Below, in pieces: positions 3,104 through 50,493 of a DNA stretch of 60,000 bases (the first letter of the stretch is position 1; every line of letters begins with the position of its first letter). The position numbers and the translations under genes are program-made. Where the stretch lies: contig CM075990.1 in the NCBI GenBank assembly GCA_038087875.1, positions 6,078,001-6,138,000 of the forward strand, read 5' to 3'. Under the pieces are notes generated by a model, which was given only the letters and a program-made list of their open reading frames with translations, had not been told where the DNA came from and did no database searches. The DNA comes from Malacoraja senta (taxonomy: Eukaryota).

Positions 3104-3548
3104 CTGGTGGAAACAGAATAGTTACTACTGGCTAATATCAGTAGGTTAACTAGACTGAGCAAAACACATACATATACACACAACCTGTCACAACCATTTG
3201 TTCATTGCAATGAATGTTATTGCTGTTGAACAGCTCACCCATACGATATATAGAGCTTGTCTTTTCATCATGCAGAACAGGTAGGTTAGCACTGGGAAAG
3301 AGATGGAAAGGTTTAAATACTCTCATATACTATCCCCATATCTTGGTTCAACAGAGGCAGGACAAGGGCAGAGAGCCAAGCTTTTCCATGGAGATGGTTA
3401 ACATTTCAATATATTTTTGAGTCCAACAATCTCAGAATTAACCTTAAAATTAAAATGAATAGCGCTGGAAATATTCAACAACTCAGACAGTATTTGTGGA
3501 ACAAGAAAGAGTTAATAGTTCTATTTGATTACTTTTTATCAGAGTGAA

Positions 3549-3890
3549 ATAGTGGTGCAGCAGTAAGTACTGGTGCCTCACCACTCCAAGGATTCATGTT
3601 TGATCCTGACGGGGTGCCGTCTACGTTGCATTTTCATGTTATCCCTATGATCACGGGGGTTTCCCTAGGTCCCCCAGTTTCCGACAACATCTCAAAGACA
3701 TGCAGGTAGGTCAATTGGCTACTGTAAATTCCCCAAATGGTGGGTGGGTGGTAGAAGAACTAATGAGCTGTTAAAGGGCATGTGGGAAAGAATAGCATTA
3801 ACTGAAAATAGATGGGGCCCAATGGAACTGATGGGATGCTCTGAGAGCTGGCATGCACTTGATGGGCTAAATGATCTTCTTCAATATTGT
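3549..3890 (+). mobile_element. tRNA-derived V-SINE (HE1-like)
   Basis: A/B-box-like head (gtggtgcagcagt...gtttgatcc), V-domain (ggtttcc...cagtttcc...aaagacatgcagg...taattggctactgtaaatt), CR1-like tail. Confidence 0.75.
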
Positions 3891-4984
3891 TTGAAAATTA
3901 AACTATGCAATTGTTTCCTCGATTATTCTGGAGTATTCAGCATTTTTTTTAAACTTTGGATTCTCGGCAGCAGCAGCCTCAGATTTAACCAGTTTTAACG
4001 ACTATTGCTGGCTAGACTAAAGGTAACCAACGTTTCCCGTGGATCAAGAGAAGCAATGTATTCCCCAGCCTTACCATCTAAATAATGCAAAGTCTCTTCC
4101 CCATTGACTACAGATCAGAGCTACCCAGCGCGGTGGCCTGCTCTAGATTATGCCCCCAAAGACCACAACCCATATCTAATAATTAGGCGAACCCGATTAG
4201 CAGAAACATCATTAGCATTGCAGATCATGGAGATAAACATGTAATTCTATGTAACCTACCTATTAACATATTGACCCCACATCAGTACCAATGCCTCTCC
4301 AGTTGGTAATGCTGTAGTTAAGGTATATCTTGGCTACTCACCCCGATAACCTACCCTAGCCTCAATCCACAAGCACCACTCATTCAATTCCCAGAACAAT
4401 CAGGAATCAGATATGGCATTAAATAACTTGAGAATATCAAACATATTTCACATAGTCAACATAGACTTTTAGAAACTCAAATTATATTGTTGCAAGTATA
4501 TCCAATGGAACGAAAAGTCTGACTAACCCACCATCCACTTCCCAATGAGTCTTTACAAATACTGTTTGATGTGATAAAGTTTGAAAGGTAATGGGATCAC
4601 CACATTGTATACAGTTCATGCCTCCCAAAATGTACACAACTGGAAACAGACCAGGAAGCAGAAAAGCTTACTTAAAACCAATTTGTATATATGAATATTT
4701 ACATAATTGAGATTTGATTATTGAAAAGGCACTTGCTAAAATTGGAGTACGAAGTCACAAAGAAAAATATTTTTTTCCTTCTTGGAAAAGCTGTCCCACA
4801 TGGTCTAGGATAACTTGCGTCCAACTCTGTTTTTGTGGGGTTGGAGGTGGTTGATGAGGTCGGTGTAGGAACCACAGACTCTACCACAGGTAAGGCAGCC
4901 GTAGCTAGATCTTTCGAGTAGGGTTGGTAGGTAACCTGGGAGTAGGTAACCTGGAAGAGCCCAGTAGGTAACCTGGGCTCTTGT

Positions 4985-5400
4985 TGAGAAGGTTATTGGC
5001 TGCAACCTTCCCTCCATTGACGAACTGTACACTGCAAGAGCCAGGAAGCGAGCAGGTAAGATCATCTCTGACCCCTCTCACCCTGGCCACAAACTCTTTG
5101 AATCACTCCCCTCTGGAAGGCGACTCCGGACTGTCAAAGCTGCCACAGCTAGACATAAAAACAGCTTTTTTTCCATGAGTAGTAGCTCTGCTCAATGGCC
5201 AAAAATCTGTAGCCTCCATTTGTTCTGGTATTTTGTTTGGTTCACATGTTTGATCAATGGCGTTTTATTATTAATGTTTAGTGTTTTATGTGTCATTCCT
5301 AACTGTCACTGTCATGTTGTCAGTTGTGGGTGGAGCACCAAGGCAAATTCCTTGTATGTGAATACTTGGCCAATAAACGTATTCATTCATTCATTCATTG
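4985..5400 (+). mobile_element. Rex1/Babar-type LINE 3' end with (ATTC)n tail
   Basis: KIISDPSHPGHKLFESLPSGRRLR-type C-terminus, aataaa, then ttcattcattcattcatt. Confidence 0.8.
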
Positions 5401-5409
5401 TTATTATTA

Positions 5410-6440
5410 ATACTGGGCATGTTTTCAAGAGAGACTAGTGGATTACAAAAGCATCGCAAATACTCCTCCTTCATTATGGATTAGTGGGGATGATACACCT
5501 TGCATAAGAGTGCCTGCTAAGAGTGTCTGGTGTTGGGTCTATGAACAACATGGCTGATGGAGTGTAATGTTCAGGGCTGGGGGTGTTGGTTTAAGAAAGA
5601 TTGTTGACATTAGTCTGCAATCCTGCCAGTGGATTTGGAAGATCTTGTGGAGATCACGTTAGTGATATTTATCTGAGATTCCTGCTGCAGGTAGTCCATG
5701 TCTCAGAAAACTACCGGAGATGCATACAATTTTTGGCCAGTAGACCATAGTTTCACGTTGGTTTTCAAACACTTTTCTGCATATGGCAAAAGGTTATGCT
5801 TTAAGCGATAGTGTGTTTCATCATCAATGCCTTCCATTGTTGCAAGATAAGGGACATGGCATATCTTTGCCAATGTCATGTTGTAGTCCTTGTGGTTTAT
5901 AGGGCAATGTTGTGTAGATGTTACTGGAAGGCCTTTTATTTCTTAAGCTTCAGGGTAATAGTTGTTAATAACTTGGGACTTGGCCTTGTGATTGAATGCA
6001 AGCTTTGTCTCTATACTCCAACTCAGTGACTGAAATTGGAGCAACCTTGGTTCTGGGGTGGAGGTGATTAACTTGAACAATTACCCATTTGCTGTCAATG
6101 TAGATTAGCTTGTCTGCTGTGGGGACACGTGAGAAAGACTGATCAGGTATTGGGCTAATGATGCAGTCTTAATTAACACAAGTCAGCACTGAGGAGTATG
6201 AAGCGGACCTATTATTCAAGATTAGAGCTTGAATTTATATCTGCTTCCATTTATGGAGCAGATATATGATGAAGAATTTCAGAGGACATCCAAATCTGTC
6301 AAGGATGCTCTATAGTCTTTGTTAATTGACTGGTCACATGCTTTTGAGGTCAAAAAGGACATGTACGGTGTTTAAATCTGCTCCCTGGATTTGTCTTAGA
6401 ATTATCATGCACTTCAGATGGTGCCCACTGTGACTTTAGT
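5410..6440 (-). mobile_element. Degraded RTE-clade LINE (3' part probably continues at about 4790-4900)
   Basis: Minus-strand remnants FDLK and RFGCP.KF at about 6270-6370 resemble RTE reverse transcriptase. Confidence 0.5.
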
Positions 6441-7478: not shown

Positions 7479-9125
7479 TACCTTTAACTATCAAGGCATT
7501 CCCATTCTAAAATGTCCATAGCTTTCCCCTTTTCGTCTTGTTGGTCCATAGCTACTTTCTATATTTTCTTGATGCATCAACTACTTTAACAGCACCTTAG
7601 TTTAATTTGCTTTGCTCCTGTTAGTTGCCTTCATATATTTGGCTTTCATTACCAATTGTATAAATATAAAATTTGTTACGATTTATTTCCAAAATTGTGA
7701 AAAGAAAAGCAACTCTGAAATGTATTTCTCGTTCCTTTTTTTAATGAACGATGTCCACTTGGTTTATAAATATAAATTAACAGACAAGCAAGTTACATAA
7801 ACACAGCATGGTCTTTCGCACCATTTACCTGACATCTATTTCTATCACCTATTTGTGCAAAAGATCACCTTTGTTCTCAGGGCAGCTGCATTCACTGACA
7901 ATTTAATTATAATGTTTACATTACTGTTCTAATTTCCTGTGTTTTGCTAAATCCTGACTCCTGTGCAATTATTATATCATCTACTAACATAAACTATCAG
8001 TGTCATCATGAAATTTTTTTCACATGCACAGCAATGTGTAATACATAAATTGTCTTTACACCATCAACTGCATGCACATTATTTGAATTGGTGTGTGTAT
8101 ACGTTTTGCATGTTATTCAATGTGACTATAACCAGAGTCAAATGATCGTTGTTTAAATTTATTTGCTCACGTTCACTGGCAATGCCAACTTTTACTGGTC
8201 ATCTACAATTGCCCCTGAACTATGTCGACACTTATGATTTTAACATCTTTGGGTCCTCAGTCAGTGGCAGTAGATTTTCTTCCTTGAAGAACATTAATGA
8301 ATCAGTTTGTTTTTTGGACAATAATTCAATAGTTTCATGGTAATCTTTACTGACGAATTTTTGTATTTATATTTATTTGATTACAGATGTTCCTTAATTT
8401 ACAAACATTCAATTTTCAATTTTTTTCCCTATGATTTCATTGAAAAAAAATGAAGTGGCCAATTCGGAAATTCTATCATGTATTGTGTTCTTTTTATTCG
8501 TATGGCTATATGGTAATTCAAATCTCACTGTACCAATTGGTGCATGTGATAATAAATGTCTCTTGAACGCTTGAACTCTCTTGATTCCAAGGAAACATAT
8601 AATTGATTTATGAAGTTTTGTTTGCCTTAACAAATAGCACACTACTCTCCACATGCGAGAAATCCAATAGCACATTTTGCCCAGTTCTATCACTCATGAA
8701 ATTTCACAAAATGAAATGTTTTCTGAGATAACATCCTTTTCGTCAATCAAAGAATGGCTGTAAGTACCACAGCTGTTGCAGAAGATTCAAGGTCCAGGCC
8801 TCCAGATGCCAGTGAAGTATTTTATCCATTGCTGCTACATGCCATAAGAATGGAATCAATCTGAAGATCTGAGATATAGTCTCAACAGTGATAAGTTTAT
8901 AACAACAAGTTAATTGCCCTCAATACTGATATTGAAACAGAATGAACAATTGAGACTGGGACAAGATTGTCTGCCTAAGGATTTTACTGCCAACATTAAT
9001 TACAGTCAGCAAATCCATTTATGGTTCATTTGTTCCACATGAACGCAAGTGAAAAAATAAAATTACAATGCACAAGCCTATACAAATGCTGATTGATCTC
9101 AGTAGTCTACCAGCCTTTGTGAACA

Positions 9126-9312
9126 AAGGTAGACAAAAATGCTGGGGAAACTCAGCAGGGAGGCAGCATCTATGGAGCGAAGGAATATGTGACGTTTCGG
9201 GTCGAGACCCTTCACAGTCTGAAGAAGGGTCTTGACCCGAAACGTCACCTATTCCTTCGCTCCATAGATGCTGCCTCACCCACTGAGTTTTCCAGCATCT
9301 GCAGTTCTTTCT
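9126..9312. repeat. Penelope-derived fold-back (palindromic) repeat with an intact hammerhead-like core at 9219-9246
   Basis: Arms atgctgg..aaactcag..ggcagcatctatggagcgaaggaata and tattccttcgctccatagatgctgcc..ctgagttttccagcat are reverse complements. Similar fold-backs at about 922-1120, 13770-13965, 23560-23790, 32452-32695, 49350-49450, 49680-49852 and 55160-55312. Confidence 0.85.
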
Positions 9313-9523
9313 TAAGCCTTTGTGTACATGTTATTCCACCATTTATTACTGCAAAGAATGCTATTATTTAACTTATGGGCCATTATTTTCCAAGGCCAAA
9401 ATGATTCAGCTTCCAATTACCGGGAAGACAGCCTATTCAGAGGAACTCCAAAATGGAGAAAATTATTTTATGGTAGTCTAATAAATAAAATTAATTTAAA
9501 AAAAATCCTCCTTTGATGCTTAC

Positions 9524-13547: not shown

Positions 13548-14830
13548 CTAAAAAAAAGACAGCTCAGTTAGGACAGAATCTCAATACAAAGAAATAATAT
13601 AGCATAAGTATTCAAAGGATTTGCATCACTGCACAAAACAACTCTTGGTGATGTGATCTATTAGTTCTCCATGTTAGTTCATTGATTTTGTTCTCTCTTA
13701 ATGCCACATGAACACCAGCCTTCAAAGTATTTTAACCAAATAACCAGTGTTTACACAGGAGTGTAGATAACAATGCTGGACAAAATTCTGGAATAATTCA
13801 GCAGGACAGGCAGCATCTCTGCAGAGAAGGAATGGGTGGGTCTTCAGAATGATCTCAACCCAAAACATCACCCATTCCTTCTTTCCAGAAATGTTGCTGA
13901 GATACTCCAACATTTTATGTGTATCTTCGGTTTAAACCACCATCTGTAGTTCTTTCCTACACATTAGATACCAATGCTAATAGCTGTAGGAAGGAACTGC
14001 AGATGCTGGTTTAAACTGAAGAAACACACAAAATGCTGGAGTAACTCAGCGGGACAGGCAGCAACTCTGGAGAGAAGGAAGAGTGATGTTTTGGGTCGAG
14101 ACCCTTCTTCAGACTTACTGAATGGCATCCCAACCAAGCCCATGACTGTGTTTTCTTTTAACTATTGTATCCACATCAAAGGATTACTTTCCATCAATCA
14201 AGAACAATGGACCTGGTTGTTTTTTTTCCTCCCCAGGTGAGAAGCACTGAAACCAATTGTCCAGGTGACTCACCAGACACTACAAAACTAGACATCAAAT
14301 CACAGACATAATAATCTGGCACCTCAATAGATAATTCATTTCCAGTCTGCCGACCTGAAGTGAACCATACTATGGGCAATGCTGCCAATCATTGATGAGT
14401 TGAGTTTAATTTATTGTCACAGGTAGAGAAAAGCTTATGTTGCATGCTAACCAGTCAGCGGAAAGAGGGCACAATCGAGCCTTCCACAGTATACAGATAC
14501 ATGATAAAAGAATAACATGAATGATTGGAACTTGTGTTTCCTCATTAGTTTGAGTCTTTGGGATTACCATACCTGTAGAATAACCACACTGCTACTGTGC
14601 CCTTACAATAAATACAGCAACCCCGGGTTTTTGATATTAGGGGATTTGAATAAGTTAGCACATTGAACGTTAGAGGTAATAGACTTTCTCGTGTTGGAAA
14701 TCGTTCCCCACTAGCTGTTTGGCAATCATGAGTGAGATGCAGGCATGACATTTCCTTAATTGTATTGCAATGTCCAAATAATGCAAGTACACAGTCCCAT
14801 GGAAATGCCATGGTTACAAAGCAAACTGAC

Positions 14831-14910: not shown

Positions 14911-15464
14911 CTATCAAAAAGAAATAACACAAATATAGTTACCATTGAAAAAAATCTCTTGTTTTCTGCCTCGTAAATACAAAATATACTTTTAGTTTTA
15001 GTCCATTCAAGTACATATTATACACCTGCAGGAAACACCAAATTAGAGCATACTGAAGAGCGCATTAAAAATGTATGCAACTTATCTATTTTAATTCCAC
15101 AGGAACAAGCACTTAAATCCGCACATGATAATCTGACAATCTACATTTCATTACATCACTACATTGGACAAACACAGACTCGTCCATAGCTCTGTGGAGC
15201 ACCTGCCCTCAGTCCACAAGAATGGCCCTGAGCTTCTAGTTATTTGCCACTTTCATTCACCATCCCACAGCCACTCCAACTCTCCGTCTGTGGCCTCCTG
15301 CACTGTTACAAAAAGGCTCAACACAAACTCATCTTTCACCTGGGCACTCTGCAGCCTTTAGGACTCAACATCAAATTACTTTAGATAATACACCTCTTCT
15401 TTTTGCATTATCAGAACTGGTGGCCCATCATCATTTCGGCTCAGTTTTTCCCTTTTCTCTGTAG

Positions 15465-16270: not shown

Positions 16271-17071
16271 CTTTATCTGCTGGGCATGTTCCATGGCCTT
16301 ACCATTGGTTACACATTTCATTGGCACACATGCTCAATCTGAACCACTCCTTAACTGGACCGTGGGTCACCTGGTCTATCATAGACATCCCCTTTGTTCT
16401 GCACATCCCATCCTCTCTGCAACCTAAAACTAATTTATTTTCTCTTTTACCCCAGTCTTGGACCTAAAACATTTATTGTTTCTCCATCCACAGATGCCGA
16501 CTGACCTACAGAGGCAAATCTAGTATTTTCTGATTTTAATTCATATTTCCAGCATCTGTGGTTTTGTGATTTTCATACTAATAGTAGATGCATTAAGATA
16601 AAGAGGACACAGTGATATAGAATTATTCACTGGACATGCATGGTTAAAGGAAGAAATAATACTCCAAGGGAAAGTACAGTTGTTGAAATTAAGGAAATAA
16701 AATTGGATTGTGTTTTTCTGTGTTTTATCTAGTTACAGTTTTCATCTTGTGATGGACATTGTTGGATTTATAGGTTTATCAAAGGCAAAACCTTTCACAG
16801 AACAGAATAACCAAAGCTTACGTGATGTGCTAACTATGAAGGGGACAGTTACCAATTGAGTTGAGCATCAGTGGCTCGATGAGCACACATACATGGTAGT
16901 GGGCAACAAGGACAAAGAGTAGGAAGTCACGATCACAGTGCGAGGTGTCATCAATCTAGTTGTGTGACTCAGACTGACGATCTGAGAAACATTCATAAAC
17001 GGCAACCTTTGGTTAACTTGGGATCTGAAAGTAATATTGTCTTCGAGAGCAGAAAGATGTACAATCTTCCT

Positions 17072-21715: not shown

Positions 21716-24700
21716 TGCCATTTAGCTTTCTATCACACCCCAAGAATAACAGGCTATTTGAGCAGGTATATATCACCTGCATACTGCTCAGGGATTAGTT
21801 TGGGGCATTCTTCACTATTCCCTGAATTGACATCAGGTACTTTGGATAGAAAATATGAATTATAAATGGACGTTTGCACAAAAAAAATTTAAATCTGCTG
21901 GTATCAGGCTCTTTTTTTCTAAAGAATATAAAGTGAAATAATTAAAATTATTAAAGTTTGTGAAAGGGCATATGATTCCACCTTTGGAGCTTCCTAAAAC
22001 AGGGTCCTATAAATGCAAGACAGTCATTAATACATTTGATTATGGAAAATATTTTAAATTATACAAAACGTGGTTGCACCTGTGTAATAATAATGCAGCC
22101 ATATTTTGCGGTTTGTCAGTAGAAGCCTGGCATAGTGTTTTTGAATCGAGTACAGAAACTGCCAACTATGCAGACTAACATTTGTTAAGTAAATGGACAT
22201 TTTCAGGACATGATGTATATGGTTGTTGGGGAAGTGCAGTGTCTTTTACTTATCACCATGGGACTTCCCTAGATTTTACTGATGGGAAAACAAAAGTAAA
22301 CTGGCAGCGTTACCAAAGTGGATTGGAAATGTGTATCATGAGACAGCCACTGGGGCTCGATTGGATCGGGCGCTGCTCCAAGAGGTCGAACGTGTGGACC
22401 AGACGCGGCTGACAGTGGTGGAGCAGTATTGGAGGAGGACACCACGGCTAGGCTTAGCCAGGCTGACCCTGTAATGCCGCCATGACAATGGGCCCTCATG
22501 GCCATTGAGCACTAAAGCGACATGAATGTCCCTTGATTCATCAACACCTCTTCAGCTGAAGGTTCTGAGTGATAAAACAAAATCAATCCACTGAAGGAAC
22601 TCAGCAGATCGAGCTGCAGTAGTGGTGTTAAAGCAAATGTTGACATTAAGTCAAACACGGGACTGGAGAGCAGGACTGATGAAGCTCTTTGTACCTTCTA
22701 TCTCCCCTCTCAATCCTGATGCAGAGTTTCAACCCAAACATCAACATTTTCTCCCACCCCCAGATGCTGGTGAATCTGAATTCCTCCAGCAGATTGTTTC
22801 ATGCTTGAGATCTGCAGTCTCTTGTGTCAGTAAATCAATGAATCTGCTTCAACACTGTAGAAAATACTTCCCCCTGAATGTAGAGGATTATTGACCTCAA
22901 AGGTATTAGAGTGAGCAGTAAACTACAACCACAGCAACCTGGAATGTTTCTAAAGCCAGTCAATGGTGATTGCAACCTTGATCTCAATTGTCAAAGCATT
23001 CCAGGCAAGCCTGGTGTACAGGCTACAGAAGTTCATTGTTCTTCTAATGCCATTCTTGATCAATCTTAGCCTCGGGAGACATTGCTCCTCAGACAGGTTG
23101 TGATAGGACCACAAGCGTCTGCAAACTCAGGATGGTGATGAGAGGTATGCTGAGGATCATCTAGTTTTGGAGCAGAACTCGTAGGAATAGCACACGAGTC
23201 GAGTTCTGAAATGCAAGCAAAGGTAAGATGCACCCCCAGGGTGATTAATAAAAACTCAGAATCTAGAGTTTCATCAACAAGAGTAGCCATGTTAAACAAA
23301 GTTAACAAAATGTTAAACAAAATTAAACAAAGTTAAGCTGGGAGGGGAATTGCTGTACAACATTCTCACAGTAGCACGATTTGGATAGAAAATATTTGGC
23401 ATTCAACAATGTTCAGAAGGAATATCAAGTGTGGTTCATGAAGCTTTGAATATATACTACACAATGGAAGATTAAAAGAGACAGGAGGCTAAAATCTTAA
23501 AATAACGAAACAAAAGAAAAACTAGGCTGTTGAAGATCCGGTTTAACCTGCAGTATAACCTGTGTAGAAAGAAATGCAAATGCTGGAATATACCGAAGAT
23601 AGACATAAAGTGCTGGAGTATTTCAACGGGTCAGGCAGCATCTCTAAAGAAAAAGGACTGGTGATGTTTCGGATCGGGACCCTTCTTCTGAAGAAGGGTC
23701 CCCACCTGAAGCGCAAGACATCCTTCTTCTCCAAAGATGCTGCCTGACCCACTGAGTTACTCCAGCACTTTGTATCTATCTTCGGTATAACCTTCTGTAG
23801 CTCAGTGCATGGTGGGATTTTTGTTTTCCTCGTACTTTCTTTCCCCTGGCATAAAATTTTGCCAAATCAAAAGTAATCCTAACATTTTCAACATTTGACC
23901 ACACTGGTCTGAAAAACAACAGTCCTTACTGATACACCTAGCAAACATTTTTATCCCTAAAACCTTGCCCAATGCACAAATTTCAATTTATGCTCCATGG
24001 GATCTGTGACCTTACATGGCTTCAAATGCAGCCTCCCGAGTGTCTTAACTGCATTGCCAGAGGGTCACAGTGCATTTCAAATACATGGCAGGTGAATTCC
24101 AGGCTGCAGCTGCTGATCTGTGCCGAATCTCAGGGTTTGCTGCTCACCGTTGGTTTCAGATCACTCAAACTCCACACTCAAGGAAGAGACGTCATCTCCT
24201 TTGCATTGCGTCCTCACACTGCTGTTGAAAATCTGGTTTAGCCTGCAATGCAAGTGTCGGTGTCGGTTCTAGGTGGTGCAATGCTGGTTGGGAAATCTAT
24301 CCCTTCATTTACAGTGGGATATTTGTATTCCGAGCACATTTACTCCCCAGCATAAAATTCCCTGAAATACTATCAAAATTAATGCAACACAGAAAATTTT
24401 GGTCTTCAACATTTGCCCCCCCACTGGCAAAGAACATGTGGATATTTGTAAACATTCTGTAAGCATCAAGATACTATAGTCATGTCATTACTGAGACCTT
24501 AATGGCATCATCCTGCCCAGAAGCTCCTGACCACATCCTTATAGGGTCTCGGTGGCTTCCATGCAAAAAGGACATTGCCTCTGGGCACTCTTCTTCATCA
24601 ACTTGATCTGATTCCCTGAAACAAAATGCCCATCCATTCACTGCATTGCAACATCCATTTGTTCAGTATTGACACTCCCTGGTGGATGTTTGTAATGTAA

Positions 24701-25193: not shown

Positions 25194-25499
25194 CTAAAAA
25201 AAAAAAGAAATATTATAATCAATTTCATTCTCAGAAAATTAAAATGCTTTCTAAGCCTTTTCGTAGTGGAACAATTGCAACAGGAACTTCATTTTAAAAA
25301 CAGATTGCATATTTGTGGGTGGCTAGGAATGGAACAATTTTCTGGAGTGTGTATCACAGATTAAATTTTAAATCTGTTTGTGTTCTATATTTTCATTATA
25401 CAACCTACAGATTTCAATTCTTGACATTTACCTCTCTGCTAACAGCAATATTTCACTCATAGATCTTGGTTTCTCATTTCATAAAAACAACCTCAAAGC

Positions 25500-26420
25500 T
25501 CACACAAAGTGCTGGTGTAATTCAACGGGTCAGGTAGCATCTCTGGACAACATGGATGGGCGACGTTTTGGTTTGGGACTCTTCTTCAGACTGATTGTTG
25601 TGATGATGGGGTGGGGGAGGAGGCTATGAGAAAGCTGGGAGGTGGGGGCAGGACAAAGTCTGGCAAGCAATAGGTGGATACAGGTGACGGAGGTTATTTT
25701 TTGGCCGATAATAGGACAAAGGCCAGAGATGAAAAGACTAAAAGTGTGGGATAAGGAGATGAGGATAGAAAAGGCACAAATTGGCAAGCCAGAGGAAGGA
25801 ATATAGGTGGAGGAGAAAGGGAACGGGGGAAATGGGTGTACATCCAAGCGGGGGAACAGCAAAAAGGGTGAAAAAGGGAGCAGAGTAAGGGTGTTAGTAG
25901 GTTCATTACCTAAAATTGGCGAATTCAACGTTCATTTGGAGAATTGATCCCCCTCTCTTGCCTGTGCTGGATCCACAACTGAATCGCCTTGTGGATCGCC
26001 TTGCCAGGATCCACAACTGAATGGGTAGAATGTGTGAATAATAGGCAGATGGAATAAGGTGGGGGAGAGGAAATAAATGGCCATGAAAGAGGACCTGGGT
26101 GGATCAGGATGTGAAAGGAGCAGAGGAGTCCAAGTTATGGGAAATTTGAGAATGCAATGTTTATGCTGTTGGGTTGTAAAATAATTAGCTGGTATATGAG
26201 ATGCTGTTCCTCTAGTTTGTGCTTGGCCTCACGCTGGGAGTGGAGGAGGCTGAAGGCAGTCAGATTGGGGTGGGAATAGGGAGGAGATTTAAAATGGTGT
26301 GCAACCGCAAGCTCAAGGTGGCCATTGCAGACAAAGCTTAGATGGTTGGCAAAGCGGGCTTCCAGTCTGCACTTGGACTTTCCAATGCAGAGCAGGCCAC
26401 AACATATATCATTTGGTGCT
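25500..26420 (-). mobile_element. Penelope-like element remnants (GIY-YIG C-terminus + 3' region)
   Basis: ORF 26135..26497: CIGKSKCRLEARFANHL...VAHHF...KLEEQHLIYQL...QPNSINI, the GIY-YIG end of PLEs. A terminal repeat with a degenerate hammerhead lies at about 25560-25592. Confidence 0.8.
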
Positions 26421-30689: not shown

Positions 30690-31740
30690 TAGAATCATAG
30701 GGTAACATGGCATGGAAACAGGAATTTTAACCCAACTCATCCATGGCGACCAAGAAGCCTATCTAAGTTAGTCATATTTGCCTGCATATAACCCATATTG
30801 CTCCAAACCTTACCTATCCATGTATCTATTCAAATGTCTTTTAAACATTATAATTGTACCTGCAACTACCACTTCCTCTGGTAGCTCATTTCATGCACCC
30901 ACCAACCTTGCCTCTCAGAGATGTTTTAAAATGTTCACTCTCACCTTAAATGTATGCCCTCTAATTTTAAACCTCTCTACACAGTGAATGAGACTGTGGC
31001 TATCAATCTTATTTATGCCCCTTAAAAAAAAGACACAAAGTGCTGGAGTAACAGCGAGTCAGGCAGCATCTCTGAAGAACATGAATAGCTGACGTTTCAG
31101 GTCGGGACCCTTCATCAGACTGATTGCAGGGGGGAGGGGAGGGAGGGTGAATTTTGATTGGCATATGGTTGGACAAAGGGCAGTGGTGAAAAGACCAAAG
31201 ATGAAAAAGTGTGAGATAAGGATAAGAGAGGTGCTAATTGTGAAGCCAGAGGAAGGAATGTGGGTGGAAGGGGAAAGATGTAGAGGGAAGTGAGCAAGTG
31301 AAGGGTGCAAATCCAGGTGGGGCACTTGGATGAGAGGAGGGGGAAAAGGGGAGGGGGGTTGTTTATAGTTTAGTGAACTAAATTTGGAGAATTCAATATT
31401 CATACTATTATGTTGTTAGCTACCCCAAGCGGAATATGAGGTACTGTTCCTCCAGTTTGCATGTGGCCTCATGTTGGCAGAAAAGTCAGTATGTGGGACT
31501 TAAAATGGTCAGCAACCGGGAGATCTAGCAGGCCTTGGTGGTCTATGCCCTTCATGATTTTACAAATATCTACAATGTCATCCATCAGTTTTCTTTGCTT
31601 CTGTGAAAACAGTCTCAGCCAATCCAAACTCTCCTAATATCTCAAGACCTCTAGTCCCAGCAATATCTTTATCATTCTTTTCATACCCTCTCTAGCTTAA
31701 TTACATCCTTCCTATAGGTTGGCAACCAGAACCTCACAAT
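30690..31740 (-). mobile_element. CR1 3' fragment interrupted by a Penelope-derived element (about 31030-31541)
   Basis: CR1 3' UTR/ORF2-end sequence on both sides; tatgccc is duplicated at the two junctions (about 31014 and about 31544). Confidence 0.7.
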
Positions 31741-33867
31741 GTTTCTCCACAACTATTGCTGCATCATCCACAAATTTGGATTTATTGGACTCAATCTTTG
31801 CATCTAAGTAATTAGTATATAGATAACTATCGGATGGCCTAGCACTGATCCCTATGGCAACCCTCTAATTTTAACCTGTCAACTTGTAAACCACCTGTTT
31901 ATCTCTACTTTGTCTGTTAACCAATTCACTACCCACCACTCTCAAGCCATGAAGTCTTATTTTGTGCAGTAATCTTTCACGTCAAACCTAAATGACTGCC
32001 TTTTGGAAATATAAGTGCATTACATTCACTGGTTGCCTTTTAACTATTCTGTTGGTTACATCTTCAAAGAGCTTCTAATTAATTATTAAAATAATTTCCC
32101 TTTCAGAAAACCATGTTGATTCATGTTATGTATTTCTTAATGGTCTGTTATCATTTCCTTAAAAATAGATTTCAACTGACCAGCAAATCCCGGTATTCCC
32201 ACTTCTTTTCTTCTTGAACAGCAGTCTTTCCTTTGCCATTGTCTAATCATGGAATCCAGAGTCTACAGAAATGTGGTAAAATTATCAAGAATGGATCCAG
32301 TCTCTTTTTCCCTGAAACCTTGTTCGTTTTTCTTGAACATTTTCTCCACATGAACTTTTAAAATTCCCAACTTTAGTTACCTACCATTTTGATTTCCTAA
32401 ATGTTTATATGCATGAAAACAGATGAGAATATTTGATTAAAACCTTTGAGTAAAACACAAAAAGCTGGAGTAACTGAACGGGACAGGCAGCATCTCGGGA
32501 CAGAAGGAATGGGTAACGTTTCGGGTCGAGACCTTTCTTCAGATTGAAGAAGGTTCAGACTTCGTCTGAAGAAGGGTCTCGACCGGAAACATCACCCATT
32601 CCTTCTCTGCAGAGATGTTGCCTGTCCCGCTGAGTTACTCCAGCTTTTTGATTCTATCTTTGGTTCAAACTAGCATCTGCAGTTCCTTACTACATATTAA
32701 AATGGTGGATTTGATTATTATTCACCATTATTGTTTCTTGTACTGCACCTTTCCTTTACACATCGTTAGAAGCTCCTACAATGAAACCTGTTGCTGCTTT
32801 GCTCCTATGTTCAATTTTCTCTCTATTTATCTATTATTAATTATTTTTGTGTGCAAAATTCTTTGTTATCTGACTAACTATTTCTTCATTACTTTGTAAG
32901 TCTTTTACTTTTATCAAACACCAAACGTTGCTGCTTCCATTGGGCACAACTTAATTAATTTCCTCATGAATCTTTCTTTCTGAATAACAGGCATGTTTAT
33001 TGAGAATAACGAACCATTTCCAAAAACATCAGTTGCTTCTTAGCTAAGCTTTTCATCTAATTTCCGGATCTACCCATGCTGACTCAAGCCAAGTCGTCAA
33101 GTCATCTGCACAAGTACGCTGAGATAGTTATAATAAACTCAGTGCTTATACCTAAGTTTTGTCTTTATTTATATTTATGGTTCTAGTTTTACGCATTTAT
33201 CACTGTCAGACTGGAGATGAGATTCCATTGCATCTTGATCATTATTCTTCTGAGCATCATTTGTAATGAGGATCTGATTAATTCTGCTGTAATTCACAGC
33301 CCTGGTCTAAAATATTCTGTTTCGATCTACAGATTATTGTTTCAGAAAACGGTTTCAAATACTTTCCCCTCACTTTTGCCATTGATGAACAGTCTTTGAG
33401 GGTTAAAGTCATTGAGAACTATTGTATTACATTTATTAAAGCCCTGTCTTATGCCATGTTAAATTCTGCCCTGCTCTCTCAGTCTGCAGTTATTCTCCCA
33501 CATCTTTTTGAATGTCTTGCTGCTTTAAACTTTCAATCTAGTCTCATACTTTCAGTGGTTTAAACTCTCGGCCTCTTCCCCACACTGTCTATTTAAACAC
33601 TCACGGCCAGCTCTGTCATTCTCTCCTTGGATAAAAACCATGGTCACCTCTCTTACTCTGTTGTAGTTCTCACTTTAGCTTTCTCATTACTTTAAACTCT
33701 TGACACATTATCTAGCGTTTACATTTCTTGTAAATGCTTGCCCTAATTGCTCACTATCTTTTACTTTTGGCCCAGTGTCTCACAATCTCATTCCTTTAAA
33801 CCCTCAGCCCAATCTCTGCATTAAATCCTGCAGGAATTGTATATATTTTCTAAGGTAACAGTACAAG

Positions 33868-35076: not shown

Positions 35077-36989
35077 TATGAGATTACCTCTCACTATTAT
35101 AAATCATGGAGAATATAGGGCCTGTCTGCTGAATATCTCCATACTGGACATCCCTGCATACCAGAAACTGATCTGGATAATATTCATTGTACTCTCTATT
35201 TCACAGGTATATCCTTCTATAGGTTGGCAGAGAAAATCTATGTATATTACATCTGCAATGTGGTCTTCCATTTGCCTGGATAGTCTAAACCTTTGCAGCC
35301 TCTTTGCATTTATGTGACAATTCAGCTGGCTATCATAAATGGAGTTTGTTATTTTACCCCTGATCCCCTCATCCAAATCATTAATATAGATTGTGAGTAG
35401 CTGGGACTTAAGGTCCAAACACTGTAATCCTGTATTTGTTACACCCTCCCGACATGAAAATGAATCATTTATTTACTCCCTTCCTTCATCTGGTTCCATC
35501 TGCCAATCAGCCTTCATGTTTCCTTGGTCCGTAAATCACATCCTGCCCGTCTTAACTCTGCCCCCTCGACTTTACACTGGCTATCTTCCCTCTCCACCAG
35601 TCCTGATGCATTAACACTTCCTTTACCCCACAGATGGTGCTTGACACTGAGTTTCTTCAGCAAATTGTTTGTTGCTCTGTGCTCCAGCATTGCAGTATCT
35701 TGTGCATCCATTGATTTCTACTTTCTGTTTTCTATCTATTAACCAATTCTCAATCTACACCAGTCCTTTCACTCCTATGGACTCTAATGCAGTTGAGTAA
35801 ACTCACATATGACGCTTCATCAAAGACATGACCATCTTCAGGAATCTTCAAGAACAATCCTTGAGTCTATGCAATTTTAAAAGTTGACACTCAGTATTTC
35901 CGTAGCCACTCCTTCACAACCATAAGATGCAGATCATTGGATCCTGAAGATCTATCGGCTATCTATCCCCTTAATTTTACTTAAAAAAAAATTTAATATC
36001 CAGATTCTCAAGTTGCATTCTTAATCTATTTGCTACTTTAAATACTCTTTTGCTGCTGTAAACTCTCACTACCTTTCTCACAGCTTCTGGTCAATTATTT
36101 TCTACTTTAGACTCCAGACCTGCTTCCTTGTAGCTTTACTGATGAAATACATTTAAGAACTGAATGCGGCCTGTAAATTGATCACTGAAACTCACCAAAT
36201 GAATTCTAGAAACAGACTATTTAACTACTCTCAAGACTGATGAATTTAATAACTAAGTTGCATTAAGAAGGATTTTAAGTTCAAGTTTCTGAAGTCTTCA
36301 GTAAGCTTCAAATTAGCCTTCTCAGAATGGGATAAAGATACTATGTTTGTTTTAAGTAGGGTGAGGATGGGATGGTTAGGACAAGGGAATACCTTAGATA
36401 GAAAAGGGTGGGGATGCTGTGGGAATATTGTTAATGAAATACGCTGGTAAGTGATTTAATAAGGGTAGTTGGAGAAAGAGTAACACGAGCAAAGAAACAA
36501 TATCTGGAAGATGAGAGTGGTTTGAGAGAGAAAACACACTTCTCATTTATGTTGACCAAACTCAATGATTCAGTGTCTTCTGTTTATTTCCGATTTTACT
36601 TTTTTTTGTTGGTGTGTAATAGCATATTTGGGATCTTGCGGGGAAAATAAAAGTGGGGTCATCACTGCTTTATTTTGACTTGGTGTTGCTGTTTGAGAAA
36701 GTTGCAAGCAGGATTATGAGTAGACAGCACCCTCTAGGGACCATCTGTTAATATTCCTAATCTTGACGAAGAATTTAACATCAACCAATTAACATTAAAT
36801 AACTCTGATTGAATGCTAATTATAATAATTTAGAACCTTATGTAATATTGCTCTTCAAAATGAAGAGAAATTTGCAAAACTTCGTTGTAGGGTTAATTAA
36901 TGAGTAACGATGAACTATACAGGAGGGAGATCAATAATCTGATTCAATGGTGCCAGATCAACAATCTTTCTCATAACGTTAGCAAGAAC

Positions 36990-39846: not shown

Positions 39847-41444
39847 ATAACTTTAAAACTCTCATCTTGTATGTGTGTGCATGTGTGTGTCTTTATATTT
39901 TCACAATAACACTACGCAGTAACAATAAGATTTTTACATATTCTGACTCATATTTTCCCCTCTAAGCAGTGAACAACTTCACTGAAGATTTTATGCTTTA
40001 TTTCTCGACTTATTGCTGATTAAAGTTTAAAAGAAACCCTCCCTTTTAAAATGAGCAGCTTCCACTGATGACATCACAATGAGGTGGGCGGGCACAATGG
40101 CTTGGCTTGGAGCCCGTTTCAAACACAGAATATTCCACGAGCTTCGAGTGACATCAGGGGGTGGGCCGCATTTCCAGAACATTCCTCAATGGCTTCACCA
40201 CCTACCCAATGGTCGGCCTGCTTCATTCTCACTGCTTGATGCACTCCTTCATGCTTCATTCGGACGTCACAATGTGGGCGGGCACCATTGCTCAGGTCGG
40301 CGCCCTTTTCACACATGCCCGCTGTCGGCCTTGTATAATATAAAGACACACACATGCTCACACATAGGCGTCGAGTCCATGCCCGCCCGCAGCCTCGCTC
40401 GGAGTCCTCGGGTCGACGCCTGCCCACCCGCGGCCTCGCTTGGGTCCTCGAGCCCACGCCCGCCCGCAGTGGGGCCTGGACTGGAGACTGCGGCAACCGA
40501 GCTGACGGCTGCAGTCTACAGCCAGGGCCGGACTGAGTACGAGAACCAGGCCGAGTTCCAGGCCCTGGCGCTGCTCCACGAGCTGGATAGGTGCTGCGGA
40601 AGGGAATGGGAGGGGAGGAGGATGATGGAAATAAGGAGGGGGATCGGGTGGGGTCTCTACCTCCCTCACTCTGCCCCTCTCCCTCTACTCCACTCCCCTC
40701 TCCCTCTCTACTGCCACCCCATCCCTCTCTACCCCTCCCCCTCCTCTCTACCCCTTCCCTCTCTACCCCTTCACTCTCTACACCCTCCCTCTCTACCTCC
40801 CTCCCCTTCTACTTCCTCCCCTCTACCATCTCCCCTCCCTCTCTACCCCCTCCCCCTTCCTCTCAACCCCCTCCCCCTCCCTCTACCCCCTCTCTCTATC
40901 CCCCCCTCCCCCTCCCTCTCTACCCCCTCCCCCTCTCTACCACTCCCCCTCCCTCTCTATCCCCTCCCCCCTCTCTACCCTCACCCCCTCTCTACACCTC
41001 CCCTCCCTCTCTGACTCCCCTCCCTCTCTACCCCCCCTCCCTGTATAGGGAGTGGTGAGTATTGGGGCCTATAGGTGAGTGGTGGAGTATTGCGTTCGGG
41101 AACCAGCCCTCCCCTGTGACGCCGCGCACCCCCTCTACCCCTCACTCTCTACTCCCCTCCCTCTCTACCCCCCTCACCCGCTCCCTCTCTACCCCTCCCC
41201 CACCCTCTCTACCCCCCTCCCTCTCTAGCTGCGCCTGCGCAGTTGGGGGCTATGCGTGAGTGGATAGGGCGGGGATGGGGGAAAAGGAGCGAATGTATAA
41301 TATTAATATAATATCAAGGGGGGGGGCGGGGTTAGTGTGTGTGCGTGGGGGGTGGTTAGTGTGTCTGACACCTCAGGCCACTTCCCCCCTCCCCCACAAC
41401 CGCATGTTGAGGGGATGGGACCCAATGGGTCATACATGGTCTAG
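39847..41444 (+). mobile_element. Putative non-autonomous Helitron
   Basis: 3' end has a GACCC-AAT-GGGTC hairpin, a short spacer and CTAG followed by T (41441-41445). No TIR or TSD. Internal GT microsatellite and subrepeats. A second copy of the same 3' end directly precedes it. Confidence 0.6.
40655..41228. repeat. Polypyrimidine (CCCTCTCTACCC-like) degenerate tandem repeat
   Basis: Repeated ctctctacccc units; source of the spurious Pro/Leu/Ser-rich ORFs. Confidence 0.9.
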
Positions 41445-43258: not shown

Positions 43259-43704
43259 TTGTTGTGGAAGATAGTTTCTAACTTCAAGTCATTATTTTTA
43301 CACTTTTCGGAATATTCAATGATTTTCTGTTGAAGTTATGGTTGACAATTGGAAGGACTCTTGCTAACATGTAACCACTTTTAAAAAATCCAGGTTATAC
43401 AAAAATATTCCTTTTTCAAATAGTGTGTGTAAGAAGTGATGCCAGTGCTCCCTAACTAACCAACACCGAAATGTTTTCATATATTCTTTTATTCCTTGTA
43501 ATTAGGTGTTTCCAACTGTGATACTGAGTTATGAGAGCATTTAACCTAGACTCTGGGCCACTGTAGGTCATCAAGAGATTCCATTATCTGAATGTAGCAT
43601 GAATTCACAATGTTTACAGTAACCAATGATAATGCCAAGGTGACACATTCTTATAGTTTTGTAGTTAAAACATACAAGTTGCAAAACTCGTGTATTACAA
43701 CCTG

Positions 43705-44560
43705 AACATAACACAAACTGCTGAAGGAACTTAGCGGGTCAGGCAACATCAGGGGAGCGTATGGACAGATGATGTTTCAGGATGAGATTATTTTCAGACT
43801 TTTGGAGTTTGGAGGGGGGGGGGGGGGGGTGGGGGAGGTGGGTAGAAAGCTGGAAAAGAAGATGTAGGGGTTAGCCAAAGCCCTAACAGGTGGTAGATAG
43901 ATACAGGTGAGGGAGGTTGGATGAGGAGAGAGGAGGAATGAAATGCAAAACCAGAGGAAGGGATATAGGTGGAAAGGAACGGGGGGGGGGGGGGGGGGAG
44001 GAAAAAGAAACCAGATATAGGGAAATAGATGGTTTGGGGATGGGAGATGAATGTACTGGGGAGGGGAAAGGTGCAACGTGGTTAGGGGGTTGGGAGATGG
44101 TGAGAGTAATGTGTGTGCATTGGAATGGGGAGGGAGGGGAGGTGGGGGGCATGGAGAGAGGGGTTTGTAGGAGAGTATTATTTGAAATTGGAGAATGCAA
44201 TGGTCATTGCATCATAAGCTACCCAAGAGGAATACAAGGTACTGTTCCTCCAGTTTGTATGCGGCCTCACTTGGGCAATAGAGGAGGCCAAGGACAGAAA
44301 GGTCAGTATTGGAAGTGGAGTTAAAATGGCTAGCAACCGGGAGATTTAGCAGACTTTGGCGGACAGAGCACAAGTATTTCTCGGTAAATTTGCTTGGTCT
44401 ACCTTGGTTTTGTGAATGTAAAGGAGGCTGCATTGCAAGCACAAAATGCAGTAGACGAGGTTTGAAGAGCTGCTGGGGTCCCTGGATGGAACTGAGAAAA
44501 AAGGAGGTTTAGGTTCAGGTGTTTACAGCTGTTGCAGGGTAAAGTACTTGGGTTGGGAGA
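43705..44560 (-). mobile_element. Penelope-like element remnant
   Basis: ORF 44212..44442 (VASHFNS...KLEEQYLVFLLGSL) followed by the shared terminal repeat. Confidence 0.75.
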
Positions 44561-44958
44561 GGAGTGATGAGTGAATTAAGGAGTTGTGGAAGGAGTGGTC
44601 TGAAAGCATTATAAAGTAACATAATGGACATGGTAAGTGATATGCCAAGAATGCCAAATGTTGGAATCTGGAGTAAAAAAAACTTCTGGAACCCAACTCA
44701 GTGGGTTGTGCAGTATCAGTAGAGAAAGGAATTGGTATCATTTCAGGTGAAGATTTTGTTTTTTCCAAGAATGCCACAATATCTTGGCTGCATAATATAA
44801 GCTTGCAGTCAAATTTCACCTGATAATTGTTCCTGTGAAGTAGTTTATTGTTTTAAGAGCTTGATTTAACTCTTAATAGATAACGCTGGTAATAAACTAC
44901 ACATCGGGCAGCATATTTAGGTTGGAAAACAAAGGTCATTAAGCTTCCTTCAATTGCC

Positions 44959-47900
44959 CATAGATACATAGATACATAGAAAATAGGTGCAGGAGTAGGC
45001 CATTCGACCCTTCACCGCCATTCAATATGATCATGGCTGATCATCCAACTCAGTATCCCGTACCTGCCTTCTCTCCATACCCCCTGACCCCCTTAGCCAC
45101 AAGGGCCACATCTAACTCCCTCTTAAATATAGCCAATGAACTGGCCTCAACTACCCTCTGTGGTAGAGAGTTCCAGAGATTCACCACTCTCTGTGTGAAA
45201 AAGTTTTTCCTCATCTCGGTTTTAAAGGATTTCCCCCTTATCCTTAAGCTGTGACCCCTTGTCCTGGACTTCCCCAACATCGGGAACAATCTTCCTGCAT
45301 CTAGCCTGTCCAACCCCATAAGAATTTTGTACGTTTCTATAAGATCCCCTCTCAATCTCCTAAATTCTAGCGAGTATAAGCCAAGTCTATCCAGTCTTCT
45401 TCATATGAAAGTCCTGACATCCCAGGAATCAGTCTGGTGAACCTTCTCTGCACTCCCTCTATGGCTATAATGTCCTTCCTCAGATTTGGAGACCAAAACT
45501 GTACGCAATACTCCAGGTGTGGTCTCACCAAGACCCTGTACAACTGCAGTAGAACCTCCCTGCTCCTATACTCAAATCCTCTTGCTATGAAGGCCAACAT
45601 ACCATTCGCTTTCTTCACTGCCTGCTGCACCTGCATGCCTACTTTCAATGACTGGTGTACCATGACACCCAGGTCTCGCTGCATCTCCCCATTTCCTAAT
45701 CGGCCACCATTTAGATAATAGTCTGCCTTCCCGTTTTTGCCACCAAAGTGGATAACCTCACATTTATCCACATTATACTGCATCTGCCAAACATTTGCCC
45801 ACTCACCCAGCCTATCCAAGTCACCTTGCAGTCTCCTAGCATCCTCCTCACAGCTAACACTGCCCCCCAGCTTAGTGTCATCCGCAAACTTGGAGATGTT
45901 GCTTTCAATTCCCTCATCCAGATCATTAATATAAATTGTAAATAGCTGGGGTCCCAGCGCTGAGCCTTGCAGTACCCCACTAGTCACTGCCTGCCATTGT
46001 GAAAAGGACCCGTTTACTCCTACTCTTTGCTTCCTGTTTGCCAGCCAGTTCTCTATCCACATCAATACTGAACCCCCAATACCGTGTGATTTAAGTTTGT
46101 ATCCTAATCTCTTATGTGGTACCTTGTCGAAAGCTTTCTGAAAGTCCAGATACAACACATCCACTGGTTCTCCCCTATCCACTCTACTAGTTACATCCTC
46201 GAAAAATTCTATAAGATTCGTCAGACACGATTTACCTTTCGTAAATCCATGCTGACTTTGTCCAATGATTTCACCAGTTTCCAAATGTGCTGCTATCCCA
46301 TCTTTAATAACTGACTCTAGCAGTTTCCCCACTACCGATGTTAGACTAACTGGTCTGTAATTCCCCGTTTTCTCTCTCCCTCCCTTCTTAAAAAGTGGGG
46401 TTACGTTTGCTACCCTCCAATCCTCAGGAACTACTCCAGAATCTAAAGAGTTTTGAAAAATTATCACTAATGCATCCACTATTTCTGGAGCTACTTCCTT
46501 AAGTACTCTGGGATGCAGCCTATCTGGCCCTGGTGATTTATCGGCCTTTAATCCATTCAATTTACCCAACACCACTTCCTGACTAACCTGGATTTCACTC
46601 AGTTCCTCCATCTCCTTTGACCCGTGGCCCCCTGCTATTTCCGGCAGATTATTTATGTCTTCCTTAGTGAAGACGGAACCAAAGTAGTTATTCAATTGGT
46701 CCGCCTTATCCTTGTTCCCCATGATCAATTCACCTGTTTCTGACTGCAAGGGACCTACATTTGTTTTAACTAATCTCTTTCTCTTCACATATCTATATAA
46801 ACTTTTGCAGTCCGTTTTTATGTTCCCTGCCAGTTTCCTTTCATAATCTATTTTCCCCTTTCCTAATTAAGCCCTTTGTCCTCCTCTGCTGGTCTCTGAA
46901 TTTCTCCCAGTCCTCTGGTATGCTGCTTTTTCTGGCTAATTTGTACGCAACATCTTTTGCTTTGATACTATCCCTGATTTCCATTGTTATCCACGGATGC
47001 ACTACCTTCCCTGATTTATTCTTTTGCCAAACTGGGATGAACAATTTTTGTAGTTCATCCATGCAGTCTTTAAATGCCTTCCATTGCATATCCACCGTCA
47101 ACCCTTTTAGAACTAATTGCCAGTCAATCTTGGCCAATTCACGTCTCATACCCTCAAAGTTACCTTTCTTTAAGTAAGTTCAGAACCGTTGTTTCTGAAT
47201 TAACAATGTCACTCTCCATCCTAATGAAGAACTCAACCATATTATGGTCACTCTTGCCCAAGGGGGCACGCACAACAAGACTGCTAACTAACCCTTCCTC
47301 ATTACTCAATACCCAGTCTAGAATAGCCTGCTCTCTCGTTGGTTCCTCTACATGTTGGTTTAGATAACTATCCCGCATACATTCCAAGAAATCCTCTTCC
47401 ACAGCACCCTTGCCAATTTGATTCACCCAATCTATATGTAGATTGAAGTCACCCATTATAACTGTTTTGCCTTTGTTGCACGGATTTCTAATTTCCTGTT
47501 TGATGCCATCCCCAACTTCACTACTACTGCTAGGTGGCCTGTACACAACACCCACCAGCGTTTTCTGCCCCTTAGTGTTTCGCAGCTCTACCCATACCGA
47601 TTCCACATCCTCCAAGCTAATGTCCTTCCTTTCCACTGCGTTAATCTCCTCTCTAACCAGCAACGCTACCCCACCTCCTTCTCCTTTCTCTCTATCCCTC
47701 CTGAATATTGAATATCCCTGGATGTTCAGCTCCCAGCCTTGGTCACCCTGGAGCCATGTCTCCGTGATCCCAACTATATCATAATCATTAATTGTTATCT
47801 GTACGTTCAACTCATCCACCTTATTACGAATGCTCCTTGCATTGAGACACAAAGCCTTCAGGCTTGTTTTTACAACGCTCTTACCCCTTATACAATTATG

Positions 47901-48200
47901 TTGAAAAGTGGCCCTTTTTGATTTTTGCCCTGGATTTGTCTGCCTGCCACTTTTACTTTTCACCTTGCTACCTATTGCTTCCGCCCACATTTTACACCCC
48001 TCTGTTTCTCTGCTCACCCATTTAAGAACCCCACCACCTCTTATTCTCTGTTTATTATTGTTTTCTTCTTTCCCCCCTACATGTTGGGTCTGAGTGCTTT
48101 CCTTCTCTGCCTCCTGCCTCACACACCGTCTAATTAGCATTCTCTATTTGAGTCCCTCCCCCAACCATTCTAGTTTAAAGTCTCCCCAGTAGCCTTTGCA
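44959..48200 (-). mobile_element. CR1-clade LINE, young and 5'-truncated (end of ORF1, ORF2 EN+RT, 3' UTR, (TCTATGTA)n tail)
   Basis: ORF 47160..48140 is an APE endonuclease (LNARS, GITETW, MGDFN, SDH). ORF 45367..46788 is RT (NYRPVSL, LDFQKAFD, QGS.LGP, FADD). ORF 45050..45355 is the CR1 C-terminus. Octamer tail at 44959-44980. Confidence 0.95.
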
Positions 48201-50333: not shown

Positions 50334-50493
50334 ATGGAAGAAGCTTTTCGACGCTCGCAGCAGGGAAGGAGCGGCCGCGGCGGCGGGGGGAGCCGGCGGC
50401 CAGTCCGGGAACGCCGGCGGCTGGTCGTCCTTCAGGGAAAGGTGTACACGGTGGGCCGCTACCAGGTGACGGTGGAGGAGTTGATCGCCGAAG
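50334..50493 (+). CDS. BMP2K: NAK-family kinase (BMP2K/BIKE; AAK1 is the alternative), first coding exon
   Basis: Encodes ...GKVYTVGRYQVTVEELIAE-G, the start of the AAK1/BMP2K kinase domain, and ends at a phase-1 GTAAG donor (50494). The +1 frame after the ATG gives KKLFDARSRE plus a Gly/Ala linker, the expected N-terminus (see findings). Exon 2 is not in the window. Confidence 0.85.

Follow-up and report, generated by a model that had tools for sequence, protein, structure and literature searches.

Minimal type-I hammerhead ribozymes are known from the terminal repeats (pLTRs) of metazoan Penelope-like elements (PLEs), where they lie behind the GIY-YIG endonuclease and occur mostly as dispersed single motifs, with some pairs on opposite strands (Cervera and de la Pena, 2014, PMC4209133). 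Their features include CUGANGAH, a G10.1-C11.1 pair, GAAA, a loop-less palindromic stretch at 15.2-16.2, and NUH. The insertion pattern described for PLEs includes an inverted, 5'-truncated pLTR copy placed head to head, a palindromic junction, a tail of 30-40 nt at one end only, and a target-site duplication (Arkhipova et al., 2013, PMC3846280; Craig et al., 2021, PMC8557442). In the rotifer PLEs, which also show inverted truncated pLTRs, palindromic junctions, and duplications, the one-sided tail measures 31 bp (PMC3846280). For PAc, a Poseidon PLE of Anolis carolinensis (Frangieh et al., 2024, PMC11167929), the protein was reported to cut and extend both strands in vitro, with two reverse transcription start sites delimiting the tail, and the hammerhead to cut only with protein, to be dispensable for insertion in vitro, and to give no cleavage-end RNA-seq reads. 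A further group, the non-LTR retrozymes, consists of tandem repeats of hammerhead-bearing monomers (PMC7229834; bioRxiv 10.64898/2026.07.22.740005).

The window analyzed in this study is a 60-kb stretch of the Malacoraja senta genome (contig CM075990.1), in which a 28-nt motif was located at 9219-9246 on the forward strand and 31091-31118 on the reverse strand, both as given by an earlier sequence-only reading. With a probability of about 85%, the copy at 9219 is a dead insertion by-product of a PLE, and its motif is a pLTR minimal type-I hammerhead of a probably Neptune-type element. The motif resembles the published PLE hammerheads in all of the features above, including its place in a pLTR behind a GIY-YIG domain and its occurrence as single motifs and opposite-strand pairs. 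The head-to-head truncated copies, junction palindromes, one-ended tails, and target duplications follow the described PLE pattern, and, as in PAc, the tail is bounded by two repeat ends, ~100 nt upstream of which the hammerhead lies (PMC11167929).

The core at 9219-9246 matched a descriptor written from the published minimal-hammerhead consensus and agrees with the consensus shown in supplementary Fig. S3 of PMC4209133. Numbered from C3 as position 1, it consists of CUGAAGA, an extra A, a helix II of GGGU/ACCC with a 4-nt loop, GAAA, and C-G-U-C. All 11 invariant bases, the extra base between A9 and G10.1, and the G10.1-C11.1 closing pair are present, the loop-less palindromic helix III ACGU occupies 9242-9245, and cleavage is predicted 3' of C9246. 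The identification as a minimal type-I hammerhead with a loop-less palindromic stem III was therefore supported by its fit to the published PLE consensus. Helix I (9217-9248) has only 2 bp, formed by 9217-9218 with 9247-9248; its length is also 2 bp at 25589, 1 bp at 31118, and 3 bp at 51594. A helix II of 4 bp and a helix I of 2 bp place the motif at the short end of the published range, in which helix I has 2-5 bp (PMC4209133). Both 9219 and 31118 had been called intact, which holds for the core bases CUGANGA..GAAA..NUH at both sites; that description ignored helix I, and the closing pair of helix II at 31118 is G.U. Since the descriptor passed only 9219, 31118, and 51594 (with no match in 88 of 100 shuffles and one match in the other 12) and the other copies deviate, including a U at position 3 of 51594, 9219 is the one copy in the window whose core is canonical throughout, with a helix I of the shortest published length.

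The motif proved to be frequent in the window. A fuzzy search identified 13 sites within six edits of the 9219 core, which included every site of the sequence-only reading, so that all of the degenerate copies it listed do exist. A family pattern gave nine matches at up to three mismatches and none in 100 shuffles; the bare CUGANGA..GAAA pattern was not above chance, with 11 matches against a shuffle mean of 6.6 and 10 of 100 shuffles reaching 11. A profile made from 15 copies of the ~130-nt terminal repeat found 32 matches with nhmmer and none in the reversed window, and a covariance model found 34, 16 of which were its training sequences. The earlier estimate of at least 10 traces in 60 kb was thus right as to a high copy number and understated the count. 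The site at 32515-32550, previously considered near-intact, did not hold up: 32515-32542 fails the descriptor with an A.C at the base of helix II. The copy at 1604 is a more divergent variant, which scores 17 bits against the profile and has 3 nt in loop II, and its shorter loop hints at a second subfamily that would be useful for covariation tests. Rfam returned no hammerhead in the window at its gathering score, and the 28 matches at E<=10 included none either, which may mean that its models do not fit forms with a loop-less helix III. The core pattern had no match in a motif scan of public metagenome contigs. A 22-nt downstream pattern gave three metagenome, two genome, and zero viral matches, and all five were rejected as chance occurrences, since the likeness stopped at the pattern, with neither an arm nor an endonuclease around them.

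The sequence-only reading had expected covariation in the helices, and this expectation was not borne out: across 16 aligned copies, helices I and II showed none beyond shuffles (score 0.178, which 81 of 500 shuffles also reached; 74% paired against 72.5%), in a test of low power on decayed copies of few masters. RNAalifold found no consensus structure among them. From the absence of covariation it does not follow that the master ribozyme lacked activity. Substitutions were counted on 25 arms, after 28 of the 32 matches passed 20 bits and three old divergent arms were dropped. Core losses fell mainly at CpG sites, where G16.2 was changed in 11 of 20 arms, C11.1 in seven of 19, and G12 in four of 19. 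In the ACGU of helix III, CG was kept in eight of 19 spanning arms and had become CA or TA in 10; the observed/expected CpG ratio of the window is 0.37. Non-CpG core cells differed less than the downstream background (9/141 against 181/1307, P=0.012), a comparison in which the background includes subfamily differences and alignment edges favor matching core letters, and the difference from a more conserved block was not significant (9/141 against 85/823, P=0.17). The first of these comparisons does not fit pure neutrality and could mean some selection on the core. From their sequences, the copies are read as decaying, in a test that is underpowered for the master.

The missing Rfam match and covariation would also be expected if the likeness to a hammerhead were accidental, or if the motif were already non-catalytic in the master, and the 2-bp helix I and the preference of isolated fragments for other folds point the same way. 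We consider this quite unlikely, because the 11 invariant bases occur together with the extra base, a G-C closing pair, and the ACGU palindrome in the very place where PLE hammerheads have been published, and because a 2-bp helix I is also found among the published PLE hammerheads of Drosophila, Culex, and Oikopleura (PMC4209133).

The motif sits in a ~130-nt terminal repeat, or pLTR. In four longer copies, with cores at 25589, 31118, 43797, and 51895, the repeat with its core follows GIY-YIG remnants, with a broken GIY-YIG C-terminus and a pyrimidine-rich 3' UTR upstream of the core. The remnants that the sequence-only reading had noted at 25500-26420, 43705-44560, and 51170-51992 were recovered there by tblastn at E-values from 1e-15 to 1e-18 (1e-3 to 1e-18 across the four copies), and the Penelope-like origin that it proposed is supported by these four copies. 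Its statement that the motif lies downstream of such remnants applies to the longer copies and not to 9219 itself, which is at the center of an inverted pair.

The remnant at 25497-26401 on the reverse strand includes a GIY-YIG C-terminus (26141-26401), the pyrimidine-rich 3' UTR, a broken core (25562-25589), and the repeat end. A second short endonuclease end lies near 25909-25935 on the same strand, giving two C-termini in series ~200 nt apart, and the stretch 25909-26140 suggests that one PLE inserted at the end of another. The reverse-strand remnant at 31026-31525 contains a frameshifted endonuclease end, the 3' UTR, and the core at 31091-31118. The longest remnant, 43699-44714 on the reverse strand, retains a degraded linker, the GIY-YIG domain (44215-44498), the 3' UTR, and a badly decayed core at ~43770-43797, and the forward-strand remnant at 51155-51990 includes the endonuclease (51155-51397) and a broken core (51895-51922). 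Two further GIY-YIG remnants were found at 31426-31485 and 15170-15378, the latter with no arm close by. Older, more divergent relatives of the terminal repeat lie at 1594-1697, 16435-16563, 22706-22824, 35582-35700, 44647-44773, 3450-3552, 49159-49254, and 58749-58851.

Pfam matched none of three endonuclease remnants of the window, and word-based protein searches returned nothing for an endonuclease remnant or for the frame across the palindrome. A phmmer search with one window remnant identified 79 proteins at E<=0.001. Of these, 10 were looked up and eight were named, seven of them belonging to Hypanus, Leucoraja, Rhinoraja, or Narcine and the eighth to a sea urchin; the closest named relatives of the endonuclease remnants are thus from skates and rays. 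Pfam GIY-YIG was present in 10 of 16 scanned relatives at E<=0.1, three of them above the cut-off, and one relative (P0059) combines a reverse transcriptase with GIY-YIG. A CX2-5CxxC linker, described as a mark of Neptune/Nematis when it precedes GIY-YIG (PMC8557442), was clear in relatives P0009, P0056, and P0059, with the form CX4CxxC in P0009 and P0059, and left just a degraded trace near 44545-44520 in the window. This linker is absent from Penelope/Poseidon and sets these relatives apart from PAc (PMC11167929). Since tblastn found no PLE reverse transcriptase remnant in the window, clade and autonomy rest on the relatives, and these point to what is probably an EN+ PLE of the Neptune type. 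Two annotated batoid host proteins, P0016 and P0029 (neuromedin-U receptor 1 and NYAP1-like) include pieces of PLE endonuclease, which are either exonised repeats or gene-model errors.

The motif at 9219 belongs to a 189-bp insertion (9126-9314) of two 5'-truncated terminal-repeat copies placed head to head. It is bordered on both sides by 14-nt target-site duplications, at 9112-9125 and 9315-9328, which match in 13 of 14 letters; at least 13 matches were reached in three of 150 random trials. The inverted repeat is centered on 9219, with arms at 9160-9213 and 9224-9277 that share 96% identity. The short arm (9126-9217) is inverted on the reverse strand, covers repeat positions ~1-94 (with C3 as 1), has no tail, and contains a core of its own in which CUGANGA lacks one base. 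The long arm (9219-9314) runs on the forward strand into the tail and, read by eye, carries an internal deletion between two 7-nt direct repeats. The two arms are each other's best match among 22 and have five non-consensus letters in common. The inversion junction (9214-9222) is the self-complementary TCAG-N-CTGA, through which both arms align and which forms the hairpin loop in the fold; it is composed of natural upstream bases, namely the 4 nt before the core and the base at -1, followed by core positions 1-4.

In computed folds, RNA across the whole 9219 insert formed a hairpin of -133 to -136 kcal/mol (z = -18). The cost of forcing helices I and II with an open core was 39 kcal/mol for the complete insert, compared with 5.8 kcal/mol when the right arm was folded by itself. 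With its core buried in a long predicted hairpin, cleavage by this copy is very unlikely. In silico, isolated motif fragments paired with each other via helix II rather than the ACGU. By analogy with the described elements, the motif in an active master element would most likely cleave after GUC only as a dimer, weakly, and possibly aided by the PLE protein.

Insertions of this type were repeated throughout the window: nine head-to-head pairs, near ~1000, 9219, 13846, 23689, 32554, 49385, 49740, 51444, and 55250, account for 18 of the 32 arms. Their junctions vary, and a one-sided tail was recognized by eye in eight of the nine. Duplications with at least 13 matching letters (13-15) were found in five pairs, against three of 150 random trials; in the remaining four, 9-10 letters match exactly or 10-13 in part, which is near chance. 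In the five well-duplicated pairs the short arms end at repeat positions 88, 88, 94, 94, and 95, and the long arms end in the tail. The pair at 922-1123 has its junction near the helix II loop and a duplication of 13/13. At 13778-13964, the short arm starts at 28 (C17, beside the predicted cut) and the long arm at -2, with a duplication of 13/14. At 23562-23790, the junction is at the core start, the left arm is tailed, and the duplication is uncertain, and the pair at 32443-32708 has a complex 21-nt junction of core-start fragments and a duplication of 9/9, which is not above chance. At 49679-49848, the short arm starts at 26-29 and the long arm at ~16, with a duplication of 15/16. Two pairs have no hammerhead: that at 49354-49447, which is truncated downstream of the core (duplication 13/14), and that at 55158-55318, in which the left arm is tailed (duplication 10/10).

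A complex inverted insertion at ~51397-51637, with cores at 51452 and 51594, lies in the last codons of the PLE remnant at 51155-51990 and has a candidate duplication of 10/12. Its position in the endonuclease end of another PLE amounts to self-targeting near the end of the open reading frame, and it recalls the preferred target region of PAc (PMC11167929). In addition, a solo arm with a tail was found on the reverse strand at 13984-14115, starting ~3 nt before a core that is broken at G12 and G16.2. It is tail to tail with the 13846 insertion, 5 nt from the right duplication of the latter, which creates a second long hairpin. Compared with the described PLE insertions, both arms of the present pairs are cut to ~100-130 nt or less, leaving a bare hairpin (PMC3846280; PMC8557442). 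The duplications are longer than in the rotifer PLEs (13-16 nt against 8-10; PMC3846280), and the insertions are very dense, with nine per 60 kb.

A two-nick mechanism, which joins the rotifer insertion pattern to the Anolis in vitro data, might account for these features. The PLE protein would nick both target strands 13-16 nt apart, and from each 3'-OH reverse transcription of sense RNA would be primed, beginning at one or the other of two internal start sites that mark the limits of the tail. The two cDNAs would stop early and anneal via a short self-complementary stretch, which at 9219 would be the TCAG-N-CTGA at the core start, and repair would leave a palindrome. We lean somewhat toward this scheme, with one cDNA per start site and annealing at self-complementary sites. 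A possible, rather less probable route to the same element's insertions is inversion through fold-back or self-priming, possibly with an antisense template, a scheme discussed for rotifer PLEs with the same head-to-head geometry (PMC3846280). Short palindromes at the junctions, such as TCAG-N-CTGA and the helix II loop at 1000, would suit fold-back, but that mechanism alone does not account for the two fixed and distinct outer ends; the overlaps at the 49740 and 55250 junctions, moreover, appear by eye to be only ~3 nt. Nor does it alone account for arms that seem to differ in subfamily letters, as at 51444, or that rank low as partners (12-15 of 21-22 for 13846 and 23689). Arm identity within the seven pairs that share at least 25 positions was 0.82, marginally above the 0.77 of 244 other pairs (P=0.056), and a common template for both arms was evident only at 9219 and 55250. 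Two-nick priming and fold-back self-priming are indistinguishable by these data.

The starts of the truncated arms appeared concentrated just before the core. Of 22 truncated arms, 10 start at -5 to -1, and six of 12 insertions have such an arm. The excess has a P of ~0.01 under an arbitrary uniform null with scan correction and with a bin chosen after looking; starts were entered by hand (two were judged by eye), the count excludes the four long copies, and a copy at 52493 that probably retains 3' UTR should not have been counted. This concentration, together with a junction axis at the core start in three of the nine pairs (9219, 23689, and 32554) and the non-consensus letters common to the two 9219 arms, could be taken to mean that the palindrome constitutes a non-autonomous hairpin element in its own right, which the PLE machinery copied in full from a single palindromic master or a few of them. 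Such an origin is doubtful: six of the nine junctions lie elsewhere, those three are not alike in their details, and the clustering of the short-arm outer ends at 88-95 is expected of a reverse transcription start site and not of random 5' truncation.

Within the preferred reading of the pairs as PLE insertion by-products, the hammerhead region may have shaped integration, an idea that we regard as speculative and unlikely. TCAG-N-CTGA would then be the preferred site for the two cDNAs to stop and anneal, and starts at 28-29 would represent run-off on ribozyme-cleaved RNA. Two short arms do start beside the predicted cut, at 28 (13846) and 26-29 (49740), and two cases prove nothing; for the Anolis element, template cutting in vivo was not seen (PMC11167929). 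If the idea is true, nine insertions per 60 kb imply enough batoid junctions to show whether PLE hammerheads cut their template in vivo.

The TCAG-N-CTGA at the core start also resembles a 3' splice site. In three of the four long copies a pyrimidine tract is followed by a CAG ending at -2, an arrangement reminiscent of Drosophila virilis Penelope, where the intron ends at helix I (PMC4209133). The tail (repeat ~112-130, e.g. 13984-14010 on the reverse strand) likewise shows a pyrimidine run, followed in some copies by CAG, and is splice-acceptor-like. The window yielded no spliced copy. A spliced form with an improved helix I, in which a GGGT before the core at 13842 and 51452 would give at least four pairs, was considered and not supported: the GGGT at 13842 comes from the inverted arm, that at 51452 is unexplained filler, and no truncated arm continues into the endonuclease.

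The sequence-only reading had interpreted the copies as a retrozyme-like non-autonomous family, an interpretation that was not supported. None of the 23 tandem-repeat rows in the window overlaps the motif, two consecutive tandem hammerhead units were not found within the 60 kb, and the copies are 5'-truncated PLE ends. A non-LTR retrozyme, that is, a non-autonomous tandem or circular-RNA family processed by its hammerhead, would fit the high copy number and the lack of coding sequence in most copies. The family is, as retrozymes are, non-coding, PLE-related, and equipped with a type-I hammerhead (PMC7229834; bioRxiv 10.64898/2026.07.22.740005), and retrozymes, which are linked to pLTRs, have been reported from one chondrichthyan genome (bioRxiv 10.64898/2026.07.22.740005). 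However, no two cores lie in direct tandem in one unit, the paired cores are on opposite strands and would form no ACGU dimer in cis, and the units do not run as monomers from cut site to cut site. The motif is also of the minimal PLE type, not the canonical type of the described retrozymes (PMC7229834). The defining tandem feature is thus absent from this window, the family is not a retrozyme here, and such an origin is highly improbable.

Several other features were noted in the window. A CpG-rich segment at 50334-50494 on the forward strand is probably the first coding exon of an AAK1/BMP2K-type kinase gene and ends at a GTAAG donor; a 22-residue piece of it matched AAK1 (E=0.036) and BMP2K (0.06), both weakly. 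What we take to be the expected AAK1/BMP2K N-terminus reads in another frame there, which suggests two compensating single-base indels, possibly assembly errors. A near-complete LINE ORF2 with APE and reverse transcriptase domains, which we presume to be CR1-like, lies in three frames at 45050-48143 on the reverse strand, and related LINE fragments were found at ~4968-5438, 31540-32140, 35104-35472, and 52461-52766. At 40590-41230, a long C/T-rich low-complexity tract adjoins a GC-rich stretch.

Taken with the published record, both the motif and the element that carries it are of known kinds, probably in a batoid family that is new to the open literature searched. The supplementary file searched of PMC4209133 has no shark, skate, Callorhinchus, or Leucoraja entry, and the open literature searched neither names this family nor holds anything specific on it or on its palindrome mechanism in skates or sharks; Repbase, Dfam, and subscription journals were outside that search, and the family may be catalogued there. 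The published association of minimal hammerheads with PLE terminal repeats is hereby extended to a batoid family, whose copies in this window are decayed insertion products and not retrozymes. Dense two-armed insertions with clean duplications provide material for testing both the mechanism of PLE integration and hammerhead cutting in vivo, and their hairpins may contribute much double-stranded RNA to batoid transcripts.
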